From Gammaproteobacteria bacterium (GTDB lineage: Bacteria; Pseudomonadota; Gammaproteobacteria; Steroidobacterales; Foliamicaceae), in contig VYBN01000001.1 of assembly GCA_009844425.1 (NCBI GenBank), positions 28,985-92,984 of the forward strand: a DNA stretch of 64,000 bases. Direction: 5' to 3'. Positions within the stretch are counted from its first letter, which is position 1. The number at the start of each line of letters is the position of its first letter. The notes beneath the pieces were generated by a model. It did no database searches, was not told where the DNA came from, and saw only the letters and a program-made list of their open reading frames with translations. A program made the translations under genes and the position numbers. Below are positions 5,445 through 35,574 of this stretch, piece after piece.

Positions 5445-5554
5445 GCCCTTCGTCATGCCCCTTCGTCCGGGAGCGTCGAAGGCAGGATGCCGACGCCGAG
5501 CCCACAAGGATGTGCTTGCCGGCGTATCCCGGAGGAAGGGGCATGACGAAGGGC
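5445..5554 (+). repeat. 110-nt hairpin-core element, copy A
   Basis: The 27-nt arms gcccttcgtcatgccccttcgtccggg / cccggaggaaggggcatgacgaagggc (1 mismatch) enclose the core gagcgtcgaaggcaggatgccgacgccgagcccacaaggatgtgcttgccggcgtatccc. Other copies are at 36779, 42228 and 46236. Confidence 0.9.
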
Positions 5555-12625: not shown

Positions 12626-12898
12626 ATGGCGAAACGAAACGACTGGCTGGGCGACGAGATGCTGGACCGCATGATGAACGTCATCATGGGTCTGGCCGAG
12701 GAGCTCTACGTCACGCGCGACCGCCTGCAGGTGATGGAGCGCGTGCTGGAAAGCCGAGGCGCGCTGGATCGCGAAGAAATCGACAACTGGAAGCCCGACG
12801 AAGGCCAGCGGGAAAAAATCCTGCGCGATCGCGACGCCTTCATCCAGGCCGTTCTGTCGCGCGCGCTCGACAAGCCCCCCGGGGAACCTCCGGAGTGA
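12626..12898 (+). CDS. hypothetical small acidic protein (90 aa)
   Basis: Clean ORF with a 14-nt spacer after the preceding gene and no competing frame. No family recognised. Confidence 0.4.
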   Translation: MAKRNDWLGDEMLDRMMNVIMGLAEELYVTRDRLQVMERVLESRGALDREEIDNWKPDEGQREKILRDRDAFIQAVLSRALDKPPGEPPE

Positions 12899-12987
12899 AG
12901 GGAACTTAACAACTCACTTGGGAATATTTCAGCAGGATTACCAATACACTTGGGAAAATTGTCGCAGTGCCTACGTGCATCGGGAGG

Positions 12988-13041
12988 CTAAACGCCCTGC
13001 TTCAAGCCAGCTTCGATGAACGGGCCCAGGGCGCCGTTCAG
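12988..13041 (-). pseudogene. orphan copy of the prfB 3' end (last 17 codons + stop)
   Basis: Encodes [17 protein letters not shown], identical to the C-terminus of the real prfB (35633-35686). There are 6 nt differences, all synonymous, and the last 23 nt are identical. Confidence 0.85.
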
Positions 13042-13847
13042 CCGGCCCCTGCGAGAATTCGATCGACCTGCGGTCCGGCCTCATTGCCGCCCATCTGCAT
13101 GAGTTCCAGCCATTGCGGGATATGCGGCTTCGCGATGGCGGTGTCCCAGCTTTCGCGCCCCTGAAGAGCTTCGTACCATCTTGCAACGGACGAGCGCGTG
13201 GACCACATGCCGGAAAGGCCGAGACAGTCAAGACGGTGTACGTACGGCGCCAGGTTGAAATCCGCCAATGTGGGCGCGTCGCCGGCAAGCCACGGCGAAT
13301 CCGCCAGCGCAAGATCCATTTCCTCAAGCAATCCGTCGAACACCTGGATTGCCGTTACGAACGCCGGCGCTTCAAAAGCCATCTCGAATGCTTGCCTTTG
13401 CATCTCCCGGCTGACCGGATCCCGCACGTTTGCGAGGTGTCCGGCAACCTTGTCGGGCGTATCCAGTTGCTGCAGGAACGCATGCCGCAGCGCGACGACG
13501 AAACTGACCACCGTGGTATGGGGGTTGTGGATGCCCTGATCGACCAGCAACGACCAGTATCTGGCATGCGCGCGTCCGACCGGATCTTCGGGCAGGAGCC
13601 TGCGTCCCGCGAACACTTCCTCCAGGTATTCGTTAATGATCGCCGACTCACGAATCACGCGATCACCGTGCACGGCCACCGGGACAATGCCCTTGGGATT
13701 CAGCTCGAGGAATTCCGGCTGGTATTGAGCTCCCTGATCCAGCGGGACGGCCCGCTCCGTAACTTCGATTTGCTTTTCCGCAATGACCAAACGGACTTTC
13801 TGGCAGCAAACGGACTCGGCAAAGTCGTAAAGAACAAGTTCACTCAT
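13038..13847 (-). CDS. glutathione S-transferase family protein
   Basis: Start trimmed to MSELVLYDFAESVCCQKVRLVIAEKQIEV...LNPKGIVPVAVHGDRVIRESAIINEYLEE (thioredoxin-like GST N-domain). It has a C-terminal helical domain. Confidence 0.75.
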   Translation of the reverse strand: MSELVLYDFAESVCCQKVRLVIAEKQIEVTERAVPLDQGAQYQPEFLELNPKGIVPVAVHGDRVIRESAIINEYLEEVFAGRRLLPEDPVGRAHARYWSLLVDQGIHNPHTTVVSFVVALRHAFLQQLDTPDKVAGHLANVRDPVSREMQRQAFEMAFEAPAFVTAIQVFDGLLEEMDLALADSPWLAGDAPTLADFNLAPYVHRLDCLGLSGMWSTRSSVARWYEALQGRESWDTAIAKPHIPQWLELMQMGGNEAGPQVDRILAGAG

Positions 13848-13863
13848 CGGTACCCGATCCCTG

Positions 13864-13992
13864 CTATGACCCGGTCGAATCGCGTCGACTCTTGTTGTCG
13901 CGAGCGATTCCCACAATCGCTATGCCCGCAAAAACCGCCATGACGGCGATGACGCCCAGCATCCAGAATCGCGTTACCACCAGATCATCCAT
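13864..13992 (-). CDS. putative 42-aa single-pass membrane peptide
   Basis: MDDLVVTRFWMLGVIAVMAVFAGIAIVGIARDNKSRRDSTGS. GGAG lies 7 nt upstream of the ATG. Too short for the ORF track and unverified. Confidence 0.3.
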   Translation of the reverse strand: MDDLVVTRFWMLGVIAVMAVFAGIAIVGIARDNKSRRDSTGS

Positions 13993-13994
13993 AG

Positions 13995-14105
13995 TTAATC
14001 TCCATTGCCTTCAGGGAGTCGTATGACAAACTTCTGAATGAGGTAGGCAATCACCAGCACTACGGCCAGGACGGCGACTGCCTGAAAGAAAATGGTCCAG
14101 AACAC
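13995..14105 (-). CDS. putative 36-aa membrane peptide coupled to the symporter
   Basis: The GTG is preceded by GGAGGA at 6-nt spacing, immediately after the symporter stop. Sequence (M)FWTIFFQAVAVLAVVLVIAYLIQKFVIRLPEGNGD. Confidence 0.4.
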   Translation of the reverse strand: MFWTIFFQAVAVLAVVLVIAYLIQKFVIRLPEGNGD

Positions 14106-14116
14106 TGAGTTTCCTC

Positions 14117-15586
14117 CTAGCTGCCGGCAATCCGCGCCGAGTATTCCGGCGAACGAAAATACCCCGGAGGGGCACTTCGAAACGCAATGTTGGCAACGGT
14201 TCCCACAATGATTGTCACGGCAAGAACCACATACGCATTCGGCAACTGAGCCGCGCCAAGCGCCTGCGGCAGCGGCGTAAAGGTCCACGCCATGTTCACG
14301 ATCCAGGCTACGCCCACCACCAGGCCCGCAGCGGTATTCGACCGCCGCCAGAAAAGACCGCTGAAGACGAGCCACATCACCGGGATCATCCAGGAAAGCA
14401 ACCAGCCGATCGATGCCAGGATCGGCGGCAGGAACGTGGCAACGGCCATGGCGGCAACAGCCAGACCAACGATGGCATAGCGGGTCACCCGGGCGGTGTC
14501 CCGCTCGGTTGCATCCCGGTTGTACAAGCGCTTGTAGAGATCCATGCTGAAGATCGTTGCCGGTCCCAGGCAGGTCATTGCAAATGTCGAAATAACGGCT
14601 GCGAGAAATGACGCCAGCAGGAGCGAGGCCAGCCATTCCGGTAAAAGCTGAACAAGCATCGCGGGCGCGGCGATCTTCGGACCCAGGGCATTGAATTCCG
14701 GAAGCGCCTTCGCGGTCATGCCGAGAACCACGGTGAATACACCGAACAGCCCGTTCAGAGGCACGGCGATCCACAGCGCCCTTGAAATAACGCGCTCGCT
14801 CCTGGCCGAAAGCGCGACCTGAACAAAAAACTGGCTGACCGGGACGCTGAAATTCACTGCCACAAACAGGCCAAGCGCAAAGGTGAGCAGCAATTCCGTC
14901 GGTCCGAATATCGTCAGCATGTGCGCCTGGTCGGTCGTCTGGTAGTACTCGCTGACAGTCCCGAACCCGTCCGGCAGCCCGATTGCAATATAGATTGTTG
15001 CAAGAATCAGACTGACGTACATGAGAATCGCATTCACCAGGTTGATCCAGCCAACTTCCTTCATGCCCGCAAAAATCACATAGGCCACGCCGAGCAGCCC
15101 GCCCACAATCGCGCCGTTTCTTATGCTCCAGCCGGTCATGGAAGCCAGGATGATTCCGATACCCTGCGTCTCCAGGGTCAGGATGCCGAAAATGGTTCCC
15201 GCCATGACACACGAAACAATGATTCTGAGGTTTCGCCCATGCATCATTTCCAGCAGTTCGGGCACGGTCGTCAGTCTGAGTCGACGCATCCAGCGCCCGG
15301 TGGACAAACAAACCACCGCGATGGCAACGGCATTCGCCAGGCCAAACCACAATGCGGTTCCGCCCATCAGCCAGGCGAGCTCAAAGATGCCGAGGATGTG
15401 AGCCGTTCCCAGGATGGTGAGAGCCATCGTGGGGGTGACGACAGCCACAGGGAGCGTTCTGCTTGCCAGCTCGAATGCGCCGTCCTGCGCCGCGGCGCGT
15501 CTGGCCCGGCTCGTGAGCCACCAGGCGATACCGCCAATAAGAACCAGTTCGTAGGCTATTACCGCTATGAGCAAGGTGGTGTTCAT
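14117..15586 (-). CDS. sodium:solute symporter (SSF) family transporter
   Basis: 489 aa, polytopic and hydrophobic throughout. N-terminus MNTTLLIAVIAYELVLIGGIAWWLTSR is typical of the SSF family. Confidence 0.85.
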   Translation of the reverse strand: MNTTLLIAVIAYELVLIGGIAWWLTSRARRAAAQDGAFELASRTLPVAVVTPTMALTILGTAHILGIFELAWLMGGTALWFGLANAVAIAVVCLSTGRWMRRLRLTTVPELLEMMHGRNLRIIVSCVMAGTIFGILTLETQGIGIILASMTGWSIRNGAIVGGLLGVAYVIFAGMKEVGWINLVNAILMYVSLILATIYIAIGLPDGFGTVSEYYQTTDQAHMLTIFGPTELLLTFALGLFVAVNFSVPVSQFFVQVALSARSERVISRALWIAVPLNGLFGVFTVVLGMTAKALPEFNALGPKIAAPAMLVQLLPEWLASLLLASFLAAVISTFAMTCLGPATIFSMDLYKRLYNRDATERDTARVTRYAIVGLAVAAMAVATFLPPILASIGWLLSWMIPVMWLVFSGLFWRRSNTAAGLVVGVAWIVNMAWTFTPLPQALGAAQLPNAYVVLAVTIIVGTVANIAFRSAPPGYFRSPEYSARIAGS

Positions 15587-15661
15587 TAACAGGCTCCCGG
15601 CATTTTTCGACGCACGCTTACGGCGAGTTCATCGCGTCCGCTTACGCGCACTATATTGTTT

Positions 15662-15679
15662 CTTGTAGAATGTTACAAG
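15662..15679. promoter_or_regulatory. perfect palindrome CTTGTA-N6-TACAAG, candidate GntR-family operator
   Basis: cttgtagaatgttacaag lies in the divergent symporter/coxM intergenic region. It fits the GT-N-AC type half-sites used by GntR/FadR regulators, and a GntR gene is in the cluster. A related tgtattaca lies at 23061-23069. Confidence 0.35.
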
Positions 15680-15767
15680 ACATATCAAAGGCGCATTACA
15701 ACCTGGCTGTGCATTGCGGCATCGCGGCCAATGTATTCGCGCAGGGAACCGAAATGGAGGTCCCGAA

Positions 15768-16640
15768 GTGGCACTGACAACGCTGGAGGAAATTCTGCAG
15801 CCTGAGAGCGTTGACGAAGTTGCGGAACTGCTGCTGAGTCACGGTGAATCGGCCATGGTCATGGCGGGCGGAACGTTCATCCATGGTCTGGTTGCAAGAG
15901 GGCTTGTGACGGACGTAACGAAGCTGATTGACCTGTCCGGACTGGGGCTGAATCAGTTGCAGACGGACCGCAAGTCGCTCCGGATCGGGTCCGCAGTCAC
16001 GTTTGCCGATCTCGAGGGTTCCGAGACGATCCGGTCTTCCGCAGTTCTTGCGGCGCTGGTGGATGCTGTCTCCTATCCGCCGCAGCAGATCAAGAATGCG
16101 GCGACTGTAGGTGGGTGCGTTGCGAGCGCCTGTCCGTACCTTGATCTGCCCATTGTCCTGCTCGCGCTGGAGGCCTCGGCAACGGCTGCGGGATCGACGG
16201 GAAAGCGCGAGATTCCGTTGGACGAACTGTTTGTGTCCCTGTTTCAGACCAGTCTGAATACGGACGAGTTCATTACCGGCTTCACGGTTCCCCTACCCTC
16301 CGCGGGAACGGCTTCGTCATTCGAGAAAATTGAAACGACGGCCAACGACCTTTCCATCGTGAGTGTCGCAGTGCGGGTAAGCACAGGATGGCGCAAGTCC
16401 AGAAACAGCCGGATTTTCGTTGGTGGAGGAATCGGGGAAGTTCCGTTCCGCTGCCGGGCCGCCGAAGTCATCCTGGACGGCTCCAAACTGGAGGATGAAG
16501 CGTTGCGGAAAGCGGCCGGGGCGGCCGTCGAGGAGATCGAGCCGTTCGGCGACCATCGCGCCAGCGCCGAGTATCGCAAGGCGATGACGGGTGTTCTGGT
16601 TGAACGTAATCTGCGCCAGGCGCGGGCGCGAATCCAGTAA
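15768..16640 (+). CDS. molybdenum hydroxylase FAD-binding (medium) subunit, CoxM/XdhB-like
   Basis: GTG start after GGAGG. Sequence VALTTLEEILQPESVDEVAELLLSHGESAMVMAGGTFI. C-terminal DHRASAEYRKAM motif. Confidence 0.8.
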   Translation: MALTTLEEILQPESVDEVAELLLSHGESAMVMAGGTFIHGLVARGLVTDVTKLIDLSGLGLNQLQTDRKSLRIGSAVTFADLEGSETIRSSAVLAALVDAVSYPPQQIKNAATVGGCVASACPYLDLPIVLLALEASATAAGSTGKREIPLDELFVSLFQTSLNTDEFITGFTVPLPSAGTASSFEKIETTANDLSIVSVAVRVSTGWRKSRNSRIFVGGGIGEVPFRCRAAEVILDGSKLEDEALRKAAGAAVEEIEPFGDHRASAEYRKAMTGVLVERNLRQARARIQ

Positions 16641-16655
16641 ACGGGGGGTCGGAGC

Positions 16656-17129
16656 ATGAAGCAAAAGGTCACCATCACCGTCAACGGCGAACCAACGGAA
16701 ATTTGGGCCGCACCGCACGAAACGCTCCTGGAAACGCTCAGGAACGACATGCACCTGGTGGGCGCCAAGCAGGGCTGCGACACGGGCGGCTGCGGCTGTT
16801 GCACGGTCCTCATCGACGGTCAGTCCCGTTACTCCTGCATGACCTACACCGTAACGCTCGACGGAAGAGACGTCACCAGCGTCGAAGGTCTCGCGGACAA
16901 CGGCGAACTGGATGCTGTGCAGCAGGCCTTCGTCGATACCGGCGCGGTCCAGTGCGGCTATTGCACCTGCGGCATGATCATGGCGGCCAAGCATCTGTTA
17001 TCGGTCAATCCGAAACCAACGGACCGCGAAATCCGCAAGGGACTCTCCGGGAACCTGTGCCGGTGCACCGGTTATCACAAGATTGTCGAGGCGGTGCGGG
17101 TTGCGTCGGGCCAACAGGAGGCAAGCTGA
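16656..17129 (+). CDS. molybdenum hydroxylase [2Fe-2S] (small) subunit, CoxS-like
   Basis: Cys clusters GCDTGGCGCCTV and QCGYCTCGMI...NLCRCTGY. Confidence 0.9.
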   Translation: MKQKVTITVNGEPTEIWAAPHETLLETLRNDMHLVGAKQGCDTGGCGCCTVLIDGQSRYSCMTYTVTLDGRDVTSVEGLADNGELDAVQQAFVDTGAVQCGYCTCGMIMAAKHLLSVNPKPTDREIRKGLSGNLCRCTGYHKIVEAVRVASGQQEAS

Positions 17130-17130
17130 A

Positions 17131-19461
17131 ATGGCGACGATCAGCGACACGGTCGGCACCCGGGTCCGGCACCACGATGCGATCGACAAGGTCACCGGAG
17201 GTCGCGGCTATCCGGTGAACGTCAATCTGGCCGGAATGCTGCATGGGCGCATGCTGCGAAGTCCTTATGCTCATGCCCGAATTGTCAGGATGGACATTGA
17301 TGAAGCGAAGACGCTTCCGGGCGTACGGGCGATTCTCACGCCGGACGACGTGCCGCAGGTCAAGTACTCGCCGATCTACTTCATGCCGACGGAGGGCCTG
17401 GCCTGCATCCAGGACATGACATTGATGGGGCGAACCGTCCGTCACGTCGGACAACCCGTCGCCGCAGTCGCAGCCGATACGATGGAGATCGCGGAACAGG
17501 CCGCACAGTTGATCGATGTCGAATACGAAGAACTGCCGGCCGTACTGACCGTCGAAGACGCGATGGCCGACGGCGCGCCGGCCATTCACGACTACACCTC
17601 CGGAAACGTTGCGGTCGACGAGACGTTCGAGACGGGAGATCCGGACGCCGGATTTGCCGCCGCCGATCACGTTTTCGAACAGACGTATGAGACGCAGCGA
17701 ATCAACGTTTGCGCGCTGGAGCCGCATGTCTGTGTTGCCGATGTCGACGCCTACGGCAACGTGACCATTCACAGTTCCATGCAGCACCTGTTCGGACTGC
17801 GCGAGAAGCTTGCATTCGTGCTGGGGCTCCCGGTCAGTAAGGTCAAGGTTGTGAAGCCTCCTTACATTGGCGGCGGATTCGGCGGCAAGTTGGACATCAC
17901 GCCGATAGAACCCTTGTCCGCGCTGCTGAGCATGGAAACGCACCGGCCTGTTCGAATGGCGCTTTCGCGGGCCGAGGAGTTTGTAACGAGCAACAAATGC
18001 CCCATAAGGATCCGGTTGAAAACGGGCGTCAAGTCCGACGGGACCATCACGGTTCGCGAAGCGAGCAGCCTGCTGGACGCCGGCGCTTACGCGACACACG
18101 GTTCCACCGTAATCATGGTGCACGGCCTGTTCGGCTACTGCTTTACCTACAAGTGTCCTAATCGCCGCTGGCACGGCCGGTCCGTTCACACGAACAATGT
18201 CACCAGCGGAGGTTTTCGCGGATATGGGGGACCGCAGGCCTCGTTTGGGGTCGAGCAGCAGATTGATGAGATCTGCGAGAAGCTGGAACTGGATCCCGTC
18301 GAGTTCCGCATCCGGAATTCGCATAGCGAAGGCGAAGACCACCCGTTTTTCGACGGGACCTTCACAACGTACCGATTCCACGAATGTCTTAGAAAGGGGG
18401 CCGAGCGCATCGGTTGGTCCGATCGAACGGCGCCCGGCAGCGACCCGGGACCCGTCAAGACCGGCATTGGGCTGGGCTGTGCCGTCACCTGGACATCGAA
18501 CTGCACGGCGCAGCCCGATCTGTACGAACACTCGGGCGCCTTTATCAAGCTCAATCCGGACGGGTCCGCCGACATTGCTTCGGCAGCGATCGATATCGGT
18601 TGCGGTCAGAACACCATCTTTTGCCAGATCGTGGCCGCCGAACTGGGGATCCCGGTCGAAATGGTTCGAATGTCCAGCGCCGATACGAGCAACGTGCCGT
18701 TCGATGCGCCAATGCATGCAAGCCGGGGCACAAACGCGGTTGGCGCGACGGTCAAGGCGGCGGCTGCGGACGCCAGGGAACAGCTTTTCCGCGTCGCCGG
18801 CACAATGCTGGATGCAAGCCCCGACGACCTCGATGCCAAGGACGGCAGGGTCTTCGTGAAGGGCGCCGAGATCGTCTCTGTGAGCATTGCCGAAGTCGCG
18901 GCGCGAGCCGATTCGCCGCTGGTCACGATGACCAGGCAAGGCCCCCAGCCGGATGCGACGCCCTATCGGGGAACGATCATCGGTTCTGCTGCGATGAACC
19001 CTGCCGTCAGCCCGATCCCGGCGGGCGCAATGTTCGTGCAGGTGGCCGTAAACACCGACACGGGAGAAGTCAGGGTGCTGCGCGCGGTGTATGCGCACGA
19101 TATCGGGCGAGTCATCAACCCTGCCGGCGCGGAAGGCCAGGTGGAGGGCGGACTTCAGCAGGGCATCGGCTACACGCTGATGGAACATACTCAGTTCGAC
19201 CCGGAGACCGGCGCCTGTCTTTCCGGCGACTTTCTCGATTACAAAATGCCCACGGCCTTCGAAATGCCTGCCGAAATCGAGTGCATTTTCATCGAATCGG
19301 ACGATCCCAACGGTCCATTCGGCGCCAAGAGTCTCTCCGAATGCTGTTTGATCGCTCCTCCCGGCGCCATAGCGAATGCGATATACAACGCTACGGGCGC
19401 CCGCGTTCGGGACCTGCCGATTACACCCGAGAAAGTCCTTCGTGCGCTCGGCAGGCTTTGA
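17131..19461 (+). CDS. molybdenum hydroxylase molybdopterin-binding (large) subunit, CoxL/xanthine-dehydrogenase family
   Basis: Start trimmed to MATISDTVGTRVRHHDAIDKVTGG. Motifs GGGFGGK and GAKSLSECCL. About 776 aa. Confidence 0.85.
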   Translation: MATISDTVGTRVRHHDAIDKVTGGRGYPVNVNLAGMLHGRMLRSPYAHARIVRMDIDEAKTLPGVRAILTPDDVPQVKYSPIYFMPTEGLACIQDMTLMGRTVRHVGQPVAAVAADTMEIAEQAAQLIDVEYEELPAVLTVEDAMADGAPAIHDYTSGNVAVDETFETGDPDAGFAAADHVFEQTYETQRINVCALEPHVCVADVDAYGNVTIHSSMQHLFGLREKLAFVLGLPVSKVKVVKPPYIGGGFGGKLDITPIEPLSALLSMETHRPVRMALSRAEEFVTSNKCPIRIRLKTGVKSDGTITVREASSLLDAGAYATHGSTVIMVHGLFGYCFTYKCPNRRWHGRSVHTNNVTSGGFRGYGGPQASFGVEQQIDEICEKLELDPVEFRIRNSHSEGEDHPFFDGTFTTYRFHECLRKGAERIGWSDRTAPGSDPGPVKTGIGLGCAVTWTSNCTAQPDLYEHSGAFIKLNPDGSADIASAAIDIGCGQNTIFCQIVAAELGIPVEMVRMSSADTSNVPFDAPMHASRGTNAVGATVKAAAADAREQLFRVAGTMLDASPDDLDAKDGRVFVKGAEIVSVSIAEVAARADSPLVTMTRQGPQPDATPYRGTIIGSAAMNPAVSPIPAGAMFVQVAVNTDTGEVRVLRAVYAHDIGRVINPAGAEGQVEGGLQQGIGYTLMEHTQFDPETGACLSGDFLDYKMPTAFEMPAEIECIFIESDDPNGPFGAKSLSECCLIAPPGAIANAIYNATGARVRDLPITPEKVLRALGRL

Positions 19462-19464
19462 ACG

Positions 19465-20019
19465 ATGAAGATAGCGAAGACGTTCCGGATTGCTGCACCG
19501 ATCGATCGCGTCTGGCCGACGATTACCGACCCGGAACAGGTCGCAAGCTGCCTGCCGGGCTGTGAACAGGTCGACAAGGTCGACGAACTCAATTACAAGG
19601 CCTTGGTAAAGGTCGTTGTCGGCCCGATCAGAACGCAATTCAAGGTGGATATCGCGTGCGTGGAGCAGCGGCCCCCCGAGTACGCGGCCTACGAGACGAA
19701 GGGCGAGGAAGGCGGAAAATCGAGCCGGGTCAAGGCAATCAGCACCCTGACGCTGGCGAGTTTGAGTGAAGAGGAGACGGAAGTCAGTTACTCGTCGGAC
19801 TTGAGCATTATTGGTCGCCTCGGAAAATTCGGCAGTGGCATGATGCTGAAGGTGGCGGATTCGATGGGGGATGACTTCGTGGCGGCGCTCAAGGGCGTAA
19901 TTGAAGGCCAGCAGGTCGACGCCGGGCCGAAGACCATGAAGACACTGAACCGGGCTTTCTGGATCGGCGGGGCGATTCTCGTGACAGCGCTCGTCATCAT
20001 TGCGCTGCTGCTGGCCTGA
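19465..20019 (+). CDS. CoxG-like SRPBCC protein with C-terminal membrane anchor
   Basis: MKIAKTFRIAAPIDRVWPTITDPEQVASCLPGCE...; hydrophobic tail FWIGGAILVTALVIIALLLA. Confidence 0.7.
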   Translation: MKIAKTFRIAAPIDRVWPTITDPEQVASCLPGCEQVDKVDELNYKALVKVVVGPIRTQFKVDIACVEQRPPEYAAYETKGEEGGKSSRVKAISTLTLASLSEEETEVSYSSDLSIIGRLGKFGSGMMLKVADSMGDDFVAALKGVIEGQQVDAGPKTMKTLNRAFWIGGAILVTALVIIALLLA

Positions 20020-20037
20020 AAACATCGCACATTCACG

Positions 20038-20730
20038 ATGCCGGACGAAGGATCAAGCATGACCGAAGAAATCCTGACTCGAATCAGCCAAATCGACCCG
20101 GACGACTGGCAGACGTTTGACAAGCTGGACCTGAAGCAATATGTCCTTTGGGAACATCCGCAAACGGGAGCGAGTATTGCTCTGCTGGATTTTCCGAAAG
20201 GAAGCGGGATACCCACCAAGCACTCCCATGCTTCGAATCAGTTCATGTACTGTCTCGAAGGCCGCTACGAGTACACCGACTCAAAGCTGGTTTTGCAGCC
20301 CGGGAGTTTCTATGCAAATCCAAAAGACCATCCGCACGGACCTACCCTGGCCCACGAACGGAGCCTGCTGATCGAGATTTACGACGGTCCGCATTACTAT
20401 GAAATGCCGAGCTACCACACCGGTCGAACCATTGGGCGTATCGACGCGGACCGCCCCGGCGGCGTGAGGTGCCTGGTAATCGCCAGGGCGAAGAATGCAC
20501 TGCCAGAACCGGACGATGATCTGATGAAATCCCATCGGATGTTTCTCGATCGCGTCGGCGCCGAAGCGGTGGGAACAACCCGGGGCATTCTCTGCAGAGG
20601 CAACGGTTCCTCGAGCGAGGGCATAGGCTACTTTCTCGATGCGGCCACTATCGAGGAGGCAAGGGCGATTGCCGATGGTGATCCACTATCCGGAAAATAT
20701 TCCGACATCGAGGTCTATCGGCTGACGTAA
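20038..20730 (+). CDS. cupin-domain protein with YciI-like C-terminal region
   Basis: Cupin segment GIPTKHSHASNQFMYCLEGRYEYT...HPHGP. The C-terminal ~90 aa resemble the YciI fold (weak). Confidence 0.5.
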   Translation: MPDEGSSMTEEILTRISQIDPDDWQTFDKLDLKQYVLWEHPQTGASIALLDFPKGSGIPTKHSHASNQFMYCLEGRYEYTDSKLVLQPGSFYANPKDHPHGPTLAHERSLLIEIYDGPHYYEMPSYHTGRTIGRIDADRPGGVRCLVIARAKNALPEPDDDLMKSHRMFLDRVGAEAVGTTRGILCRGNGSSSEGIGYFLDAATIEEARAIADGDPLSGKYSDIEVYRLT

Positions 20731-20735
20731 CAGCC

Positions 20736-21158
20736 ATGGCCAGAAAGAAGGAACGGATTCTCACTGACGCGGTGCAGGAGCCGGGGCCGAAGCTGTGGTC
20801 GAATTGCCTCCGGGTGGGCGACACGATCTATATTTCCGGGCTGACCTCGCGCGCGGCGGACGGCGTCACGATTCTCGGCGCCGATGAATACGAGCAATCC
20901 CGGCTCATCTTTTCGAAGATGAAGGCTTACGTCGGTGCGGCCGGGGCTTGCATGGACGATATCGTGCAGATGGTCATCTATCTGACCGATATCAGGAAAA
21001 ACACGCTCGTGTGGCGCGCCAGGGAAGAGTTCTTCGAAGGCGATTATCCGACGTGTGCGCTTGTCGAGGTCAGTGGCCTGGCCAAACCCGAAATACTGGT
21101 GGAGATTTCCGCGACCGCAATCGCCGGCTGCTCGCCCGAATCCAACAACGCCGGTTGA
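20736..21158 (+). CDS. RidA/YjgF-family reactive-intermediate deaminase
   Basis: 140 aa. VGDTIYISGLTS...IVQMVIYLTDI...PTCALVEVSGLAKPEILVEISATA. Confidence 0.8.
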   Translation: MARKKERILTDAVQEPGPKLWSNCLRVGDTIYISGLTSRAADGVTILGADEYEQSRLIFSKMKAYVGAAGACMDDIVQMVIYLTDIRKNTLVWRAREEFFEGDYPTCALVEVSGLAKPEILVEISATAIAGCSPESNNAG

Positions 21159-21160
21159 AA

Positions 21161-22099
21161 TTACTGAAAGAACTTTTCAGGCGGAATGGGCCCCCACTGC
21201 GTTACGCCTTCGGGCGTGGCCGGAATTCTTGAGGGAGCATGCCTTGCATCCACCACGTCGCCATCGGCGTAATGCTCGATGCGGCTCCCGAAAGGGTCGA
21301 TCCAGTAATCGAATACCTGGCTGCCCGCCATGTGCCGTCCAACACCGACTTCCATCCTGTAGCCGCGGTTGATCAGGAAATCATGACCGCTCATCACGGC
21401 GTCGATGTCCTGCACCTCAAACGCCACATGGTGCAGTCCGGTGTTGTCCGACTGCGATACGAAAACACTGTGGTGGTCGGTGATCTCCTGCAAGGGATCG
21501 CAGCTCATGAAAACGCCGACGGTTCTTTCTTCCGCGTCCGGCGTGACGAGAACGTCCGCCGCCTTCAGGCCGAAATGTGAGCCGAACCAGGCGGCCGACG
21601 CGTTGGCGTCCGGGACCCGCAGGGCGATATGGCCCAGTCTAAGCGCCGGCACTCGTCCTTTCGGAGGCCGCTGAGAATCGTTGATGCGCTGTTTGCGGGT
21701 GCCGTAGTTTTGAATCAGGGGATCGCGCACCGGCCAGCGAGACAGCCAGTCGCGCCCATGCACCACGTCGATACGATAGCCATCCGGATTTTCCACCGTG
21801 ACACGGCTTCCCCCGAACTCCGGCAAAAGCGGTTCTTGCCTCTTGCCCGGACCCGCACTGACAAGCGCATCCAGGTCATCTTCGCGGGAAGCTTCAAGGC
21901 CCATACCCAGAAAGCCGTTTTGCTCGGCCTTCCAGGCCACATAGGCATATGGATTGCCGTCCGCGGTGCCGAAGGCGATTCTGTCTGAGGACCTGTCGCT
22001 TACCTCAAGCCCAAAGTCCGTCAGAAAAGTGCAGGCAACGTCAAGGTCCGTGACGTTAAACAGTACGTACGCCAGTCCTCGAACCCTGATCATCGGCAC
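21161..22099 (-). CDS. VOC-family protein, extradiol ring-cleavage dioxygenase-like
   Basis: 312 aa with two glyoxalase/VOC repeats (GLAYVLFNVTDLD...; LGHIALRVPDANASAAWF...HHVAFEVQDID). Confidence 0.65.
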   Translation of the reverse strand: MPMIRVRGLAYVLFNVTDLDVACTFLTDFGLEVSDRSSDRIAFGTADGNPYAYVAWKAEQNGFLGMGLEASREDDLDALVSAGPGKRQEPLLPEFGGSRVTVENPDGYRIDVVHGRDWLSRWPVRDPLIQNYGTRKQRINDSQRPPKGRVPALRLGHIALRVPDANASAAWFGSHFGLKAADVLVTPDAEERTVGVFMSCDPLQEITDHHSVFVSQSDNTGLHHVAFEVQDIDAVMSGHDFLINRGYRMEVGVGRHMAGSQVFDYWIDPFGSRIEHYADGDVVDARHAPSRIPATPEGVTQWGPIPPEKFFQ

Positions 22100-22116
22100 C
22101 CAAGACTAACAGCATC

Positions 22117-23004
22117 CTAGTGAAAATCGTACTTGATCACGATCATGGGAATCGAATTGGAATCCCTTGCATTGGGCGCGAAAGTCGTACGGTCATAGTC
22201 GATGCCGCCTTCATCCCAGAAGTACTCGTACCGGAATCCCAACTGGAGGTTCCTGTATACGTGGGCAAACAGCTCGAGTTCCAGGAAAACGCGGTCGTGC
22301 CGCTCAGCCGGGTTCGGGGCGCTCTTGTCGCTGGTTGTGCCTTGCTGATAGCGGAAGATCGTCTGATGGTTCCAGCGGATTCCTGCCGCTTCCCAGTATT
22401 TCCGCGCGGTTATTCCCCAAAAATTGTGGTTCTCGTAACACGAGCCGTCCGGGCTGCCAAAGGGGCCGGTGATGTACTCGTCGCAGTTTGAACGCAGCCA
22501 CCACTGGACCTGGAACTTGTCATTGACTCCCTGAAAGCCCGGCACGTCCAGATAGGCGCCCAGTCCGAATGCGCTGGCCCGGTAATCGAAAAAGCTCCCG
22601 GCTTCCAGCCGCCATTCGAAACTGACGTCCTTCAGGAAACCAAGTTCCAGATCCTTCTTTTGAATCTTGGAGAGCCGAACGTTGCCGTTCCAGAGTCCGT
22701 AGAGTTCCGAGGTTCCGGTGTCCCCTTCTCCGTAAGCGGCGCCGGCCGGGTTATCGAAATTGACCCAGTCAAGAAAGAAATAGTTTTCGCCCAGGAAGTA
22801 GTTGCTCTGGTGCTCGAACCGTACCTGGGTCCTGTTGCCGCCATCTGCGCCGTACCCGGTTATGAAGTCGTTATCCGCGGATCCGGTGAAGGATACCTGC
22901 AGGTTCGATGTGGCATAGCCGTTGTCGGTGGCGTGTTCGTCAGCCAGCAGTTGAGGCGCGGGCGCGGCCATGGCCGCAATCAGAAAGAGTGCTTTACCTT
23001 TCAT
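22117..23004 (-). CDS. putative outer-membrane beta-barrel channel
   Basis: Signal peptide MKGKALFLIAAMAAPAPQLLA, an alternating aromatic/polar beta-strand pattern, and an aromatic-rich C-terminus. The exact family is not recognised. Confidence 0.5.
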   Translation of the reverse strand: MKGKALFLIAAMAAPAPQLLADEHATDNGYATSNLQVSFTGSADNDFITGYGADGGNRTQVRFEHQSNYFLGENYFFLDWVNFDNPAGAAYGEGDTGTSELYGLWNGNVRLSKIQKKDLELGFLKDVSFEWRLEAGSFFDYRASAFGLGAYLDVPGFQGVNDKFQVQWWLRSNCDEYITGPFGSPDGSCYENHNFWGITARKYWEAAGIRWNHQTIFRYQQGTTSDKSAPNPAERHDRVFLELELFAHVYRNLQLGFRYEYFWDEGGIDYDRTTFAPNARDSNSIPMIVIKYDFH

Positions 23005-23093
23005 CGTTCCTCCGTCGTGAGAGGGATAGTCGTTGCGATGTCACGTAAGATATTATGCGATGTATTACACAAAGGCAAGAGGGAGCACTTCAA

Positions 23094-23945
23094 GTGAAAC
23101 TGGTCAGGTACAGCGTGGATAACGACGTTTCGCCGGGTCTGATTGACGAAAAAGGCCGTATCCGTGAACTCGGGACCGAGATTCACGACATAGGCGGCGA
23201 GGTTCTCGAAAGCGGCACACTGGCCCGGTTGGCTGGTCTGGCGCCGGAATCAATGCCGTTGGCGCCAATGGGCGCGCAACTTGTTGAATGCGTTGCGGAC
23301 GTGTCCAAGTTCGTATGTGTAGGGCTGAACTACGCGGATCATGCGCGTGAAGCGGGACGACCCATCCCCAGGGAGCCCGTCCTGTTCATGAAAGCCACGA
23401 GCGCGATCTGTGGGCCATTCGATGACATTCTCGTTCCCCGTGATTCCGTCAGGACCGATTGGGAGGTCGAGCTCGGCATCGTGATCGGCCAGGTAACGAG
23501 GAGAATAGAGAAGGAAGCGGCATTCGACCACATAGCCGGCTACTGTGTTGTCGACGATCTCTCGGAACGCGCTTATCAATCCGAGCGCGGGGGCCAGTGG
23601 GTCAAGGGCAAGAGCCTGGACACATACGGTCCGATAGGTCCCTGGCTCGTCACCCGCGACGAAATACCCGAGCCCAACAGCCTGGCCCTATGGCAGGAAG
23701 TCGACGGGAAACGCTACCAGGACGGCAACACGGCGGACATGATCTTCAAGGTGGACGAAATCGTCAGTTACGTCAGCCAATTCATGACATTGCTGCCGGG
23801 AGACATCATTGCAACCGGCACTCCCGCGGGCGTCGGCATGGGCCAAAAGCCGGAACCCGTGTATCTCGGCCCGGGCCAGACCCTGCGCCTGGGGATCGAT
23901 GGTCTGGGTGAACAGACCCACGCCGTGGCATTGGCGGAATACTGA
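23094..23945 (+). CDS. fumarylacetoacetate hydrolase (FAH) family protein
   Basis: GTG start after GGGAG. VGLNYADHAREAG...WEVELGIVIG...IATGTPAGVG are FAH-family hallmarks. Confidence 0.8.
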   Translation: MKLVRYSVDNDVSPGLIDEKGRIRELGTEIHDIGGEVLESGTLARLAGLAPESMPLAPMGAQLVECVADVSKFVCVGLNYADHAREAGRPIPREPVLFMKATSAICGPFDDILVPRDSVRTDWEVELGIVIGQVTRRIEKEAAFDHIAGYCVVDDLSERAYQSERGGQWVKGKSLDTYGPIGPWLVTRDEIPEPNSLALWQEVDGKRYQDGNTADMIFKVDEIVSYVSQFMTLLPGDIIATGTPAGVGMGQKPEPVYLGPGQTLRLGIDGLGEQTHAVALAEY

Positions 23946-23954
23946 CGCGGAACG

Positions 23955-24596
23955 TCAGAAATCTCCCGGGATACGCGTGAGCTTGTCGATGTGGAGATTC
24001 ATCGCCTTTTCGGCCGCGTCAGGGGCGGCCGCCTTTATTGCTGCGGCGATCTCTTCATGCTCGGTCTGCACTCGTCGCAGTCGGTCCTCGCCTGTGAGGG
24101 TAAGAAACCAGAGCGGATTCGAGCGTTGCTTGAGGGAGGCGACCAGTTCGGCAATCACGGGGTTCCCGGATGCTTCGGCGATGGTGATATGAAACTCATG
24201 ATCGATACGCATCAGGCCCTTTCGATCCCTGGCCTCCAGGTACTTCCGACCTTGTCGTACGAGTTTATCGAGCACGCCGACCTGTTTCCTGGTGGCGTTC
24301 TCGGCAGCCAATCGAACCGCCGCGGACTCGATAATAATCCTGGTTTCCATGACTGCGTTAAGTTCCGGCGTCGACCATCCGCGAATGAACAGGCCTTTCC
24401 GCGGTACGACCTCCACGAGCCGGTCATGCTGCAGGCGAGAGAGCGCGGTACGTACGGGAGATCGGCCGTATCCGCTGATTTCGCATAACTCCTGTTCCGT
24501 ATACAGACGACCTATGGCCAACTCCGAGTTCAGGATCTTCCACTTGAGAAAATCGTAAACCTCCTCGCTCTGAGAGTGCTTGAGTGCTCTTTTCAC
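23955..24596 (-). CDS. GntR-family (FadR/FCD subfamily) transcriptional regulator
   Basis: N-terminal wHTH (LYTEQELCEISGYGRSPVRTALSRLQHDRLVEVVPRKG) and a C-terminal all-helical FCD-like domain. Confidence 0.85.
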   Translation of the reverse strand: MKRALKHSQSEEVYDFLKWKILNSELAIGRLYTEQELCEISGYGRSPVRTALSRLQHDRLVEVVPRKGLFIRGWSTPELNAVMETRIIIESAAVRLAAENATRKQVGVLDKLVRQGRKYLEARDRKGLMRIDHEFHITIAEASGNPVIAELVASLKQRSNPLWFLTLTGEDRLRRVQTEHEEIAAAIKAAAPDAAEKAMNLHIDKLTRIPGDF

Positions 24597-24678
24597 GGTG
24601 GATTCAGTCTCGGGAATTTCGCGTAAATATGCCGGTAAATTGTATCATCTGGCATGCGCAGGCCAGAAACCATATAAC

Positions 24679-25458
24679 ATGTCTAGTAAAATATTAGATG
24701 GTTTGCAACTTGCCGGGAGAGCCAACAGTTTCGTGTCCGGGGATCTGACAGAATCGAACGTGTTCGCTCGGTTGACCGAGTCCGGCACAAGCACGATTGC
24801 CAACGTTCTTCTGACACTTGGGTTCCGCAATGTGTGCCTTCGAGGCCTGACGCCAATCGACCCCGATCGCGGCCGTATGGCCGGGCCCGCTTACACGCTG
24901 CGGTTCATTCCGGCGCGGGAAGACCTCGACCATCTGGAAAACTACGACAGCGATGACAACCTGCACAGACGTGCGATCGAGGAGTGCCCCGCGGGCGCGG
25001 TCCTCGTAATCGATGCCGGAGGCAGCCGCCAGGCATCATCGGCAGGCGACCTTATGGCTGCCCGCCTGAAGGCCCGCGGAGTGGCGGGCATGGTCACTGA
25101 CGGGGGATTCAGAGACCAGGCGGGAATCCGGCAAAGCGGACTCCCCGCCTTCCATGCCGACCCGGCGACGCCTTCAACGGTTGTCGCTCTGCATCCGATC
25201 GAACTCAATGTTGCAATCGGCTGCGCCGGAGTGCCGGTCTATCCCGGCGATATCATCGTTGGCGACGCCGATGGAGTTGTGGCCATTCCCGCTCACCTCT
25301 CCGACCAGGTTGCGGCCGCTGCCTCGGCGGCTGAAGAGTACGAGGAATTTGTCGGGCGCGAGGTGTCGCGGGGCAGGTCCCTGCTTGGGTTATTTCCGGC
25401 AACCGCCGAGAGCAGGAAAGAGTTCGAGGCGTGGGTTGCGGCCGGAAAGCCGCGGTGA
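24679..25458 (+). CDS. RraA-like / 4-hydroxy-4-methyl-2-oxoglutarate aldolase family protein
   Basis: Start trimmed to MSSKILDG. Segment AGAVLVIDAGGSRQASSAGDLMAARLKARGVAGMVTDGGFRD is typical of the RraA/HMG-aldolase fold. Confidence 0.7.
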   Translation: MSSKILDGLQLAGRANSFVSGDLTESNVFARLTESGTSTIANVLLTLGFRNVCLRGLTPIDPDRGRMAGPAYTLRFIPAREDLDHLENYDSDDNLHRRAIEECPAGAVLVIDAGGSRQASSAGDLMAARLKARGVAGMVTDGGFRDQAGIRQSGLPAFHADPATPSTVVALHPIELNVAIGCAGVPVYPGDIIVGDADGVVAIPAHLSDQVAAAASAAEEYEEFVGREVSRGRSLLGLFPATAESRKEFEAWVAAGKPR

Positions 25459-25492
25459 CTCATTGGTCAATCATGATGCAAGGGGCCGGAAC

Positions 25493-27028
25493 TTGAAATT
25501 CGAGATTCAGGAAGTACTGGACGCAGCGGGCGTCGAGCACCTGAACGCCGGAGCCTACTGCAGCGACGGAGGCTGGAGCGGAGCTCCGGTGGATGAAGCC
25601 TTCGATCACATCAATCCGGCCACCGGAAAGAGTACTGCAAGAGTTCTGCCGGCCACGGAAAGCGATTACGACCGAATAATTCGTTGTGCAATCGGGGCGC
25701 AGAAGAAATGGGCGATGGTCCCAGCCCCCGAACGAGGACAGCTCGTGTCGCGTATTGGAGAACTGGTTGCGCAGAATCACGAAACGCTGGGAAAAATCGT
25801 TGCCATCGATACGGGCAAGTCCGTCATGGAGGGCATGGCCGAGATCGGAGAAGTCATCGATATGGCCCGGCTCGCCGCCGGGCAATCCAGGATGCTCTAT
25901 GGCTTTACCCAGCAATCGCAGCGGCAACGGCATCGAATGTATGACCAATGGCTGCCGCTGGGCGTTGCGGGAATCATTTCGGCATACAACTTTCCTGCCG
26001 CCGTCTGGGCCCAGAATGGGTTTCTGTCGGCAATATGCGGCAACACCGTTATCTGGAAACCCAGCCCGAAGGTGCCTCTGACCGCGATCGCGCTGCAAAG
26101 GATTACGATACAGGCGATGGAAGACACGGGTCATTCCGGTGTCTTCTCGCTGTACCTGCCGGAATCCGATGCAAGTGCGCAGAGGCTGGTCGATGATGAG
26201 CGAGTGGCGCTTGTGTCTTTTACGGGATCCACGCAAGTGGGCGAAATGGTCGCCCAAACCATTGCCAGGTCGCTGGGACGCCGCTGTCTGCTCGAGTGTT
26301 CCGGAAACAATGCCTGCATAGTCGACGAAACGGCCGATCTGAAGCTTGCGGCCCGTTCGCTGGCGTTTGGGGTGGTAGGAACAAGCGGTCAGCGTTGCAC
26401 CAGTACCCGCCGTGTAATCGCCCAGAAGTCGGTCCAGGAGCGTTTGGTTGAACACATGGTCTCTGCATTCAGCCAGATCAAGGTCGGCGACCCGCGAGAG
26501 GAAGATGCGATCGTCGGACCGCTTATCGACATCCATGCCGTTCGTCACTTCGAGACCGCGATACAGGAAGCGGTCGAGCTGGGCGGCAGGATCGCTTGTG
26601 GAGGGTCGCGAATTGACCGCCCGGGCTTCTATGTCGAGTCAACGATCATTGCGGACTGCGAACCGCATTGGAATTGCCTGCAACGTGAGACATTCGCGCC
26701 CCTCGTCTATGTCCTTGGCTACGAGACCCTGGACGAGGCGATCCATATCCACAATGAGGTTGCTCAAGGTCTTGCCTCCGGAATACACAGCGAGAGCATG
26801 CGCAATATCGAGCACTTCCTGTCGGCCGCCGGCAGTGACTGCGGTATTGCGAAAGTAAACATGGGAACAACCGGCGCAGACGTTGGGGCCGCGTTTGGCG
26901 GCGAGAAGGAAACCGGAGGCGGGCGAACTGCCGGGTCGGATGCGTGGAAGGGTTACATGCGCCGGCAAAGCGTTTGCATCAACTGGAGCGGGACGACCCC
27001 CTGGGATTCAATCATCGACCTCGACTGA
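25493..27028 (+). CDS. NAD(P)-dependent aldehyde dehydrogenase
   Basis: In-frame TTG start after AAGGGG; the start is uncertain. Motifs FTGSTQVG, LECSGNNA (catalytic Cys) and GQRCTSTRR. About 511 aa. Confidence 0.85.
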   Translation: MKFEIQEVLDAAGVEHLNAGAYCSDGGWSGAPVDEAFDHINPATGKSTARVLPATESDYDRIIRCAIGAQKKWAMVPAPERGQLVSRIGELVAQNHETLGKIVAIDTGKSVMEGMAEIGEVIDMARLAAGQSRMLYGFTQQSQRQRHRMYDQWLPLGVAGIISAYNFPAAVWAQNGFLSAICGNTVIWKPSPKVPLTAIALQRITIQAMEDTGHSGVFSLYLPESDASAQRLVDDERVALVSFTGSTQVGEMVAQTIARSLGRRCLLECSGNNACIVDETADLKLAARSLAFGVVGTSGQRCTSTRRVIAQKSVQERLVEHMVSAFSQIKVGDPREEDAIVGPLIDIHAVRHFETAIQEAVELGGRIACGGSRIDRPGFYVESTIIADCEPHWNCLQRETFAPLVYVLGYETLDEAIHIHNEVAQGLASGIHSESMRNIEHFLSAAGSDCGIAKVNMGTTGADVGAAFGGEKETGGGRTAGSDAWKGYMRRQSVCINWSGTTPWDSIIDLD

Positions 27029-27166
27029 ATCGGGGAGCGCATACATCGCGATGCATATCCGCACCGCAAAACTCCGATTCATCGTGCGGTGTCAACCTCG
27101 TCTGCGAACCAGCTTATTCTGGAAATTGTGCATCTGACTTGGGAATATTCCAATATAATTCCCAAC

Positions 27167-28315
27167 ATGTATGGAAGACTTCTTGATACACCAAGCGGTT
27201 CAGTGTTTCTTTTCGGGCCCCGGGGCGTCGGCAAAACCACCCTTGTGAGGCAGAGGTTTCCTTCCGCCGCCACCTACGACCTGCTCGATTCTCATGAGGC
27301 GCTGCGGCTTGAACAGGCGCCGCAACGGCTTTATGACGAATGCAGCGCACTCGACAGAGGTTCGTGGGTGGTCATCGACGAGGTTCAGCGTGTCCCGGCG
27401 CTGCTGAACGAAGTCCATCGGCTCATCGAACAGCGCGGACTGTATTTCGTCCTTACCGGATCAAGCGCCAGAAAGCTCCGCCGCGGCGGGGTGAATCTCC
27501 TGGCCGGACGCGCGCTCACCAGGAATCTGTTTCCGCTGGTCTCGGCGGAACTCGCCGGCGACTTCGACGTGAACCAGGCGTTGCGATTCGGGAACCTGCC
27601 GAGCGTGATCGGCAACCGGGAGCGGATCGATTACCTGCAAAGCTACACCTCCACCTATCTTCTGCAGGAAATCCAGCAGGAAGCGTTCACGCGCAACTTG
27701 GGCGGCTTCGCGCGGTTCCTGGAGATCGCCGCCCGGCAGAACGGCCAGCGGACCAACATGCTGAACATCTCCCGGGACGCCGGAGTGAAGCGCAGCACCG
27801 TGAGCAACTACTTCGAGATACTGGTGGATACCCTGATCGGCTTCTGGCTGCCGGCCTGGGAATTCAAACCAAAGACGCGGCAGGTGATGGGAAGAAAGTT
27901 CTACTTCTTCGACTGCGGCGTTTGCCGGGCGCTGACCCGGCGCTTACCCTTCCCGCCGTCGCAGGAAGAACTGGGTCCGCTGCTGGAAACTCTCGTAATC
28001 AACGAGCTGCGGGCGTATCTGTCCTACGGGAATCTCTACTACCCTTTGCACTACTGGTGTTCGTACAACGGCGTGGAGGCGGATATCGTAATGGAAACGG
28101 CCCGGGGGTTCGTGGTTATCGAAATCAAGGCGGCAAGCCGATGGGAGAGAAAGTTCCAGCGTGGGCTAAAGACAGCGGCCGAACGCCTGGGCGGGAAAAA
28201 GACCCGGCGCTACGGCGTTTACCTTGGCGCGAGAGCACTGGTGCTGGATGACGTGCGAGTCTATCCGGTCCACGATTTTCTGGCAGAACTCTGGGCCGGC
28301 GGCCTGATCCGCTAA
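27167..28315 (+). CDS. AAA+ ATPase with DUF4143-type C-terminal domain
   Basis: Start trimmed to MYGRLLDTPSGSVFLFGPRGVGKTT (Walker A). VVIDEVQRVP (Walker B). The C-terminal region is of the AAA_14/DUF4143 type. Confidence 0.75.
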   Translation: MYGRLLDTPSGSVFLFGPRGVGKTTLVRQRFPSAATYDLLDSHEALRLEQAPQRLYDECSALDRGSWVVIDEVQRVPALLNEVHRLIEQRGLYFVLTGSSARKLRRGGVNLLAGRALTRNLFPLVSAELAGDFDVNQALRFGNLPSVIGNRERIDYLQSYTSTYLLQEIQQEAFTRNLGGFARFLEIAARQNGQRTNMLNISRDAGVKRSTVSNYFEILVDTLIGFWLPAWEFKPKTRQVMGRKFYFFDCGVCRALTRRLPFPPSQEELGPLLETLVINELRAYLSYGNLYYPLHYWCSYNGVEADIVMETARGFVVIEIKAASRWERKFQRGLKTAAERLGGKKTRRYGVYLGARALVLDDVRVYPVHDFLAELWAGGLIR

Positions 28316-35557: not shown

Positions 35558-35574
35558 ATCCTTGTCCGGCAAGC

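Follow-up and report, generated by a model that had tools for sequence, protein, structure and literature searches.

An orphan prfB 3' tail as a likely integrase-free recombination scar in a sponge-associated gammaproteobacterium

The last 17 codons plus stop of the release factor 2 gene prfB occur twice, 22.6 kb apart and in the same orientation, in the 64,000-nt stretch of gammaproteobacterial DNA analysed here (hereafter the window), and the copy that stands apart from the gene is a non-functional relic today. This orphan tail is probably a 54-nt piece of a prfB gene that worked in a different, related lineage and was captured when a catabolic gene cluster looped out. On balance, we favour a recombination scar made without an integrase, of which loop-out of the cluster followed by recombination at a short repeat, M, is the leading version. 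The best reading of the locus as a whole is that the cluster has been shuffled among related sponge-symbiont lineages at a hypervariable site just downstream of prfB. The two tails are:

12988–13041, minus strand: orphan prfB 3' tail (T') of 17 codons and a stop, lacking the body of the gene
36728–35633, minus strand: prfB (release factor 2), with PCRF and RF-1 domains; its last 54 nt (35633–35686) are the working tail (T)

A repeat finder and direct comparison agree on a 55-nt direct repeat with six mismatches (12987–13041 against 35632–35686), and the similarity breaks off sharply at either side of it. The original prediction had described the orphan as a copy of the prfB C-terminus in the same orientation, and both tails indeed translate on the minus strand to an identical 17-residue peptide. 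Alignment also bears out its count of 6 nt in five codons (ttc/ttt, gaa/gag, gct/gcg, ttg/ctc with two changes, and ggc/ggg), with all six differences synonymous and the opening 23 nt of the two tails identical. Six random substitutions in a 54-nt tail would all be synonymous with a probability of only 3.5e-4 to 1e-3; the orphan thus derives from a functional prfB allele and not from drift in place, and that allele must have been shaped by coding selection. The left junction, on the orphan's side, is the same in 10 independent contigs of the same species, and both repeat junctions are identical across many independent assemblies. In each of four sponge-metagenome runs, a single contig spans the left junction with 0 differences at a depth of 4–89, and such agreement across assemblies and runs means that the junction is not an assembly artefact. 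We therefore give next to no credence to a tail that was duplicated locally and then drifted, to a chance resemblance or to an artefact, given the silent-only differences, the identical junctions and the 48 of 54 identities, to which nothing comparable is expected from shuffled sequence. The ORF that contains the orphan tail (12971–13327) has no Pfam match, and a search for a promoter or terminator role of the region found none.

In the working gene, a Shine-Dalgarno-like AGGGGG precedes CTT TGA at 36659–36654, which is the classical site for programmed +1 frameshifting, and the gene ends a conserved core block, pyrG-kdsA-eno-ftsB-surE-pcm-VTT-nlpD-(AMP-binding)-DUF498-prfB. The left flank, beyond the orphan, is a catabolic cluster whose last genes are an M24 peptidase gene and then a gene for a 90-aa protein. 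The features from this gene to the prfB stop are, in order:

12626–12898, plus strand: 90-aa conserved hypothetical gene at the end of the left flank, no Pfam family
12901–12944: repeat M1, which aligns to M2
12902–12987: AT-rich spacer of 86 nt (45% GC), holding M1 and two copies of CACTTGGGAAWATT
13036–13041, minus strand: junction microhomology CTGAAC, 5–6 nt, containing the GST stop TGA (13040–13038) and equal to the first two tail codons
13038–13847, minus strand: full-length GST gene, 269 aa (Pfam GST_N and GST_C), the first gene of module 1
13042–27031: module 1, a catabolic cluster with 59% GC, delimited from Pfam and called genes
27032–27166: spacer c and repeat M2 (27120–27165), M2 lying immediately upstream of the DUF4143 start
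27167–28315, plus strand: AAA_14/DUF4143 ATPase gene (Pfam)
28312–28356, minus strand: GST 3' tail relic of about 40 nt (ending in GPQVDRILAGASA and the stop), from alignment and translation; its stop overlaps the DUF4143 stop
28365–28475, plus strand: internal fragment of a class A RNase P RNA (Rfam RF00010, 84.7 bits, E = 5.5e-25)
28495–34728, minus strand: Calx-beta repeat protein gene, 2077 aa, 72% GC (Pfam Calx-beta)
35188–35560, plus strand: aldehyde dehydrogenase (ALDH) 3' pseudogene in two blocks with a 329-nt deletion between them
35574–35627: REP-like palindrome, a dispersed repeat that separates the ALDH relic from the prfB stop

The interval between the tails is a mosaic of at least two modules and four gene relics, not one island. 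Module 1 runs from the GST gene through genes for an SSF symporter, a CoxM/S/L-type molybdenum hydroxylase, CoxG, a cupin and RidA to those for a glyoxalase-fold protein, a 295-aa unknown protein, an FAH hydrolase, a GntR regulator, an RraA-like protein and an aldehyde dehydrogenase. The ALDH copies bound the segment with the DUF4143 and Calx-beta genes. Block 1 of the ALDH relic matches 26330–26593 with 17 mismatches (6.4%), 13 of the 17 synonymous, and block 2 matches 26923–27031 with a single mismatch. The GST relic differs from the GST gene by about 10%, at third positions in the conserved GPQVDRILAGA stretch. The RNase P piece covers model positions 105–212 of 367 and scores below the gathering threshold since it is only a fragment; cmscan at E values up to 1 detected no second RNase P piece at 35076–35142. 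M1 and M2 are identical at 34 of 45 nt (76%), with a longest identical run of 13 nt, and the alignment score was reached by 0 of 2000 shuffles. The motif CACTTGGGAAWATT occurs just twice in the window, against 0 occurrences expected, and M was rejected as a dispersed repeat, with two copies in the window and 0 in the relatives' loci. The M2 region contains the palindrome TTGGGAAT-N11-ATTCCCAA, and inspection of M by eye for a Xer/dif-type site yielded no convincing XerD arm. Divergence amounts to 11% between the prfB tails (all silent), 24% between the non-coding M1 and M2, and roughly 6–11% between the coding pairs. Among the called genes and tested ORFs between 12.9 and 35.7 kb, no recombinase, integrase, resolvase, transposase or phage Pfam family was detected, in agreement with the earlier statement that the DNA between the copies holds no integrase or recombinase.

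Related genomes offer both empty sites and other locations of the cluster. Close RF2 relatives were taken from the protein database and their contigs were then compared at the locus; an RF2 scan of genome contigs gave, among the matches listed, only distant relatives (at most 68% identity). Four of the relatives, L097, L100, L099 and L109 (94%, 93%, 85% and 80% nucleotide identity to the window in prfB), are without all of the DNA between the tails and have prfB beside the window's left flank. In L097, L099 and L100, a convergent amino-acid permease gene overlaps the prfB tail by 32 nt, and beyond it lie the 90-aa gene, the M24 peptidase gene and the rest of the left flank. L109 has no permease gene there, and its prfB is followed after 18 nt by a 92-aa homolog of the 90-aa gene. 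Relatives free of the island had been predicted to have prfB next to the 12.6-kb region; this is so in L109, and in the other three with the permease gene in between. An empty site is nevertheless not the occupied site minus an element and one copy of the repeat, since prfB is followed there by the permease gene or the 18 nt, whereas unrelated, AT-rich DNA of 86 nt adjoins the orphan. Homology of the window to L097 and L102 stops at 12901 in blastn, just past the 90-aa gene, and the 86-nt spacer had no match in the relatives' loci; a decayed permease fragment was considered as its origin and rejected, as comparison gave no match. The source of the window is an uncultured sponge-associated gammaproteobacterium known solely from metagenome assemblies, and an empty-site relative co-occurs with it in the same sponge runs at higher depth.

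The cluster itself resides elsewhere in other genomes. In L101/L108 (the genome of L109), it lies between ubiB and an IS/trpA, within a 2.37-Mb contig that also holds prfB, 1.7 Mb away, and in L102/L105 between a TonB receptor gene and the permease gene. Its nucleotide identity is 85% to L108 and 91% to L102/L105, and in neither case does the GST end carry a prfB tail. A 95-nt remnant of the permease gene's 3' end lies at the ALDH end in L102/L105 and starts directly after the position that the prfB stop would occupy. The GC content of the cluster is 0.556–0.591, against 0.645–0.668 for the core in all three lineages (8–10 points lower), and the cluster is a compositionally distinct, movable unit. 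The proposal that everything between the copies (13042–35632) is island cargo therefore stands insofar as this DNA is absent from four relatives, and falls insofar as the interval is a mosaic of modules and relics and the cluster is found at other places in relatives. An exact look-up of the DUF4143 gene gave matches confined to the window's own species.

The inner end of the orphan tail can be placed closely. The bases (C)TGAAC are common to the natural 3' end of the GST gene and to prfB codons −17/−16; the GST gene ends in GGTTGAAC in L102 and in GCCTGAAA in L101, and homology of the cluster to both ceases at 13036/13037. With the GST stop inside CTGAAC and the cluster homology ending at this point, the junction falls within the microhomology, and a junction at 5–6 nt of microhomology is a hallmark of illegitimate joining. 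GST homologs of 265–273 aa align over 97–100% of their length. The 50-nt spacer after the L102 GST gene was considered as a decayed prfB tail and set aside (about 33% identity in an ungapped comparison by eye, and no match in blastn-short).

Contigs from two public runs, X27 and X25, add further states of the locus. The very close sister lineage in X27 has 3 differences in 264 nt of prfB (98.9% identity). One of its contigs joins the equivalent of 12758–12881 plus 36 nt to that of 27138–28382 (97% identical). The second segment runs from the right part of M2 through the DUF4143 ATPase gene and the GST relic into the start of the RNase P fragment; the DUF4143 gene, 97% identical to the window copy, comes directly after the 90-aa gene. 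This joint implies that X27 is without exactly 12917–27137, that is, the orphan tail and module 1, and the interval absent is bounded by M1 and M2, not by the two tails. In the run X25, an intact ALDH 3' end is followed by the same spacer, the REP-like repeat and prfB.

Comparison with relatives also bears on which of the two tails is native. The orphan has 6 differences from the working tail, 5 from L097, 4 each from L100 and L109, and 11 from L099, and the working tail has 1 difference from L097 and 2 from L100. The working tail is thus the relative-like copy (1–2 differences) and the orphan the divergent one (4–5), a gap that over 54 nt is not statistically decisive: an overall divergence of about 5.5% predicts about 3 differences in 18 codons, and neither tail departs significantly from this. 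The further claim that the gene was rebuilt with codons from an element while its original tail was displaced runs against this pattern, within the same statistical limit. A search along prfB for a mosaic break against L097, L100, L099 and L109 found none: the gene is evenly diverged throughout, and such a search does not settle which tail is native. No contig of the runs examined came closer to the orphan than 4 differences, so that no donor lineage with an orphan-type tail was found there, and a 33-mer specific to the orphan had no match in JGI metagenome contigs.

We propose the following history for the scar. In a donor lineage, the cluster would have been oriented so that ALDH pointed towards the prfB 3' end. 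X25 has such an arrangement, and in the window the ALDH relic beside prfB would be its trace. When the cluster looped out, the region of the GST stop (..TGAAC) would have been joined illegitimately to CTGAAC at codon −17 of the donor prfB, and the putative circle would thereby have captured the ALDH-prfB spacer together with the last 54 nt of the donor gene. The next step would be recombination of the circle, or of an equivalent fragment, with a recipient chromosome at the M sequence upstream of the DUF4143 ATPase gene. This recipient may have resembled X27, with the 90-aa gene, M, DUF4143, the GST relic, the RNase P RNA fragment, the Calx-beta gene, the ALDH relic and prfB in this order, and would already have held an old, gutted version of the cluster, in which the RNase P fragment and the Calx-beta gene had taken the place of part of the DNA. 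One such event would explain all four diverged duplicates, namely the two prfB tails, GST and its relic, ALDH and its relic, and M1 and M2. Judged from their sequences, the amounts of divergence in all four pairs fit a single related donor lineage. A site-specific recombinase is not needed for the proposed path. Its direction, a gain in the window as opposed to a loss in X27, is our inference, and X27 may equally have lost 12917–27137 by deletion between M1 and M2. The path has its own costs: 13 identical bases in a row are a poor RecA substrate, and the donor ALDH-prfB spacer would have to contain a hypothetical M-like sequence.

An insertion at the prfB tail, likewise without an integrase, is the alternative that deserves the closest attention, although we consider it unlikely. 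The recipient would here have had the order 90-aa gene, 86-nt spacer, prfB, and a donor fragment reaching from GST through the ALDH relic and REP-like repeat to a prfB 3' end would have entered by a Campbell-type single crossover or by homology-facilitated illegitimate recombination, anchored in prfB and joined at its far end to CTGAAC in the recipient's tail; the orphan would then be the original tail and the working gene's tail the donor's, which is the end state of the original prediction reached with no recombinase. In favour of such an insertion, no repeats of the novel DNA lie further out than the two tails, and microhomology lies at the junction; L109 shows that prfB can directly adjoin the 90-aa gene in this group, and the orphan's five differences from L097 stay within genome-wide divergence, for which about three are expected. 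The donor, however, must already have had the complex tandem order of ALDH, c, M2, DUF4143, the GST relic and the rest, which means extra steps, and the insertion alone gives no account of the homology between M1, next to the orphan, and the M2 that precedes DUF4143. Moreover, the closest empty-site relatives, L097 and L100, have the permease gene after prfB and not the 86-nt spacer, and it is the working tail that is nearest to close relatives.

The original prediction had instead invoked an integrative element with its own copy of the prfB 3' end and a crossover at the 23-nt core; this reading, in which a site-specific integrase would later have been lost, we judge improbable. Such elements are classically recognised by a silent-only direct repeat of the end of a gene, empty sites do exist, and the CTGAAC inner boundary recurs in the L105 relic, where CTGAACGGC also ends the permease-fragment relic. 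Of the five features of an attachment-site element that were tested, only the terminal repeats are clearly present, and an integrase in the interval, a matching empty site and recurrent boundaries are absent: the interval has no integrase, resolvase or transposase family, the cluster sits at other loci without att-like repeats, and the orphan tail is without native downstream sequence. The supposed core is likewise invariant in L097 and L100 and has one difference in L109, and the codons that vary between the two tails are those that vary among relatives; a core that is invariant in near relatives says nothing about a crossover, and its pattern follows ordinary site conservation. The GST stop, furthermore, lies inside the 'core' while the GST gene is full length, the sister X27 is without a different interval, and the interior is a mosaic of relics. 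Assembled contigs, which conceal rare variants, contained no circular or excised form, and those of the window's populations have a single junction form, subject to the same limit. A literature search for prfB as an island attachment site gave nothing.

Breakpoints recur at this locus. The start of the 86-nt spacer at the window's orphan tail, the start of permease homology in L102, the relic in L105 and the deletion joint of X27 at 35633 all lie at or beside the prfB stop, and CTGAAC(GGC) marks the tail boundary as well as either end of the relic in L105. Breakpoints at or beside the prfB stop (window, L102, X27) and at CTGAAC(GGC) (window, L105 relic) are commoner than independent random events would lead one to expect; selection that keeps prfB and the permease gene intact explains part of the recurrence, and some site preference is possible. 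A bolder and quite doubtful extension is that the cluster is an integrase-less mobile unit, which would pass as a circle from one related symbiont genome to another, use captured host-gene tails (prfB, permease, ALDH) as portable anchors of homology for Campbell integration by the host RecA and prefer the convergent prfB/permease junction with its motif CTGAACGGC. Such a unit would explain why CTGAAC and the prfB stop recur as breakpoints in the window, in L102/L105 and in X27.

The favoured scar has partial counterparts among known systems. Several integrative elements rebuild the 3' end of their target gene, including e14 and phage 21 in icd of E. coli, the islands in tRNA and tmRNA genes, and GIsul2-type islands in guaA. 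As with these, a gene-end direct repeat with silent differences flanks acquired DNA in the window, and relatives have empty sites. The likeness is superficial, however, since the interval has no integrase, its boundaries are not reproduced at the other cluster loci, the orphan stands apart from its native downstream DNA while the working gene keeps a relative-like tail, and the junction coincides with the stop codon of the neighbouring GST gene. Imprecise excision that captures flanking host DNA is known from specialised transducing phages and F-prime plasmids. In the proposed path, a loop-out at microhomology would similarly carry off the last 54 nt of prfB, which would travel with the element; unlike in those systems, there are no phage or plasmid functions here, and the intermediate is putative. 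Orphaned 3' gene regions are also stranded when modules are displaced, as in Rhs C-terminal displacement and in T6SS effector-immunity arrays (Kirchberger et al., 2017, PMC5361080), and this stranding has been attributed to homology-facilitated illegitimate recombination (PMC5361080, citing de Vries and Wackernagel, 2002; Prudhomme et al., 2002; Meier and Wackernagel, 2003). The resemblance lies in the addition of relatives' DNA at a recombination hotspot, in short 3' fragments of displaced or foreign genes at module borders, in the lack of a dedicated recombinase, and in a junction at short microhomology; the other junction may lie within homology, with M1/M2 or the ALDH copies as candidate anchors. 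In contrast to Rhs and T6SS displacement, the pieces at this locus are housekeeping and catabolic tails (prfB, GST, ALDH) and an RNase P RNA rather than toxin genes, and there is no constant 5' part with a swapped variable 3' part. The event belongs to a known kind; its setting is unusual, and intermediate states document it unusually well.

The locus is a compact and datable record of uncultured sponge symbionts exchanging and re-acquiring an entire catabolic pathway with neither phage nor integrase machinery. The four diverged duplicates and a piece of RNase P RNA lie together in 23 kb, and related populations show at least six alternative states of the locus, some of them within the same sponge. 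For genome annotation, a silent-only repeat of a gene tail is insufficient to call an att site, and the junction should first be examined for microhomology, relatives for a conserved core, and empty sites for what exactly they contain. If the site preference of the breakpoints is true, the locus would serve as a model for island mobility independent of recombinases. As a minor observation, the REP-like repeat beside the prfB stop has a second copy at 56407–56458 and another in L097, and its summed contig depth in metagenomes reaches 400–1800.

In the empty-site relatives L097, L099 and L100, a 463-aa amino-acid permease gene is convergent with prfB, and the two genes overlap by 32 nt at their ends:

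L097 11184-11215, opposite strands, prfB/permease 32-nt overlap
L099 11151-11182, opposite strands, prfB/permease 32-nt overlap
L100 3742-3773, opposite strands, prfB/permease 32-nt overlap

In these three relatives the TTA within the Phe-Ile codons of prfB, read on the complementary strand, supplies the permease stop TAA. The permease has been lost entirely from the window's species. On the other side of prfB, a TonB-dependent receptor gene is inserted in the gap between DUF498 and prfB in L099 and L100 and is missing from the window and L097, and prfB is therefore variable on both sides in this group:

L099 7415-9940, inserted TonB-dependent receptor gene
L100 73-2517, inserted TonB-dependent receptor gene

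Beyond pyrG, a second low-GC variable patch (window ~48000-51000, 55–58% GC) differs among strains of the same species (L091 1-2408 vs L092 1-2510), with some strains carrying an N6_N4 DNA methyltransferase and a 393-aa protein, and others an HNH protein, DUF1838 and TilS.

Permease ends also flank the catabolic cluster in a related species (L105 2830-2945, L102 10811-10960), where two ~95-nt copies of the permease 3′ end are ~85% identical, one lying within the intact permease and the other being an orphan. The orphan copy ends in CTGAACGGC; ahead of it stands CTGAAC-TCCT-CAGGTTTT, possibly a prfB tail with an internal deletion. In the very close sister lineage of run X27, the ALDH relic is shorter still than that of the window; the position equivalent to window 35242 is joined to the prfB stop codon (35633), with 17 nt (CCTGACTCCGGTGATCA) between relic and stop codon.

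Upstream of the DUF4143 ATPase gene lies a palindrome, TTGGGAAT-N11-ATTCCCAA (window 27138-27165), resembling an operator. The orphan prfB tail has beside it a diverged copy of this stretch, in the repeat M1 (window 12917-12944), together with a second CACTTGGGAAAATT. Flanked by the relic of the GST tail on one side and the Calx-beta stop codon on the other, window 28365-28475 (+) matches an internal part of the bacterial RNase P RNA model (Rfam RF00010, positions 105–212 of 367, E = 5.5e-25); this fragment may have been carried along with the Calx-beta gene out of the true rnpB locus. For a proposed second piece at window 35076-35142, cmscan gave no match.

Two kinds of repeat recur in these genomes. 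A REP-like element reaches a summed contig depth of 400–1800 in sponge metagenome runs, compared with 10–100 in adjacent DNA, and is thus highly dispersed in these sponge communities:

window 35574-35627, REP-like GC-rich palindromic element
window 56407-56458, REP-like GC-rich palindromic element
L097 12608-12661, REP-like GC-rich palindromic element

The other kind comprises four ~110-nt elements in the window, whose ends are closed by a 28–30-nt near-perfect inverted repeat:

5445-5554, ~110-nt inverted-repeat element
36778-36891, ~110-nt inverted-repeat element
42228-42338, ~110-nt inverted-repeat element
46236-46345, ~110-nt inverted-repeat element

One of them is held in the prfB leader, ~50 nt upstream of the prfB start, and L097 too has copies.
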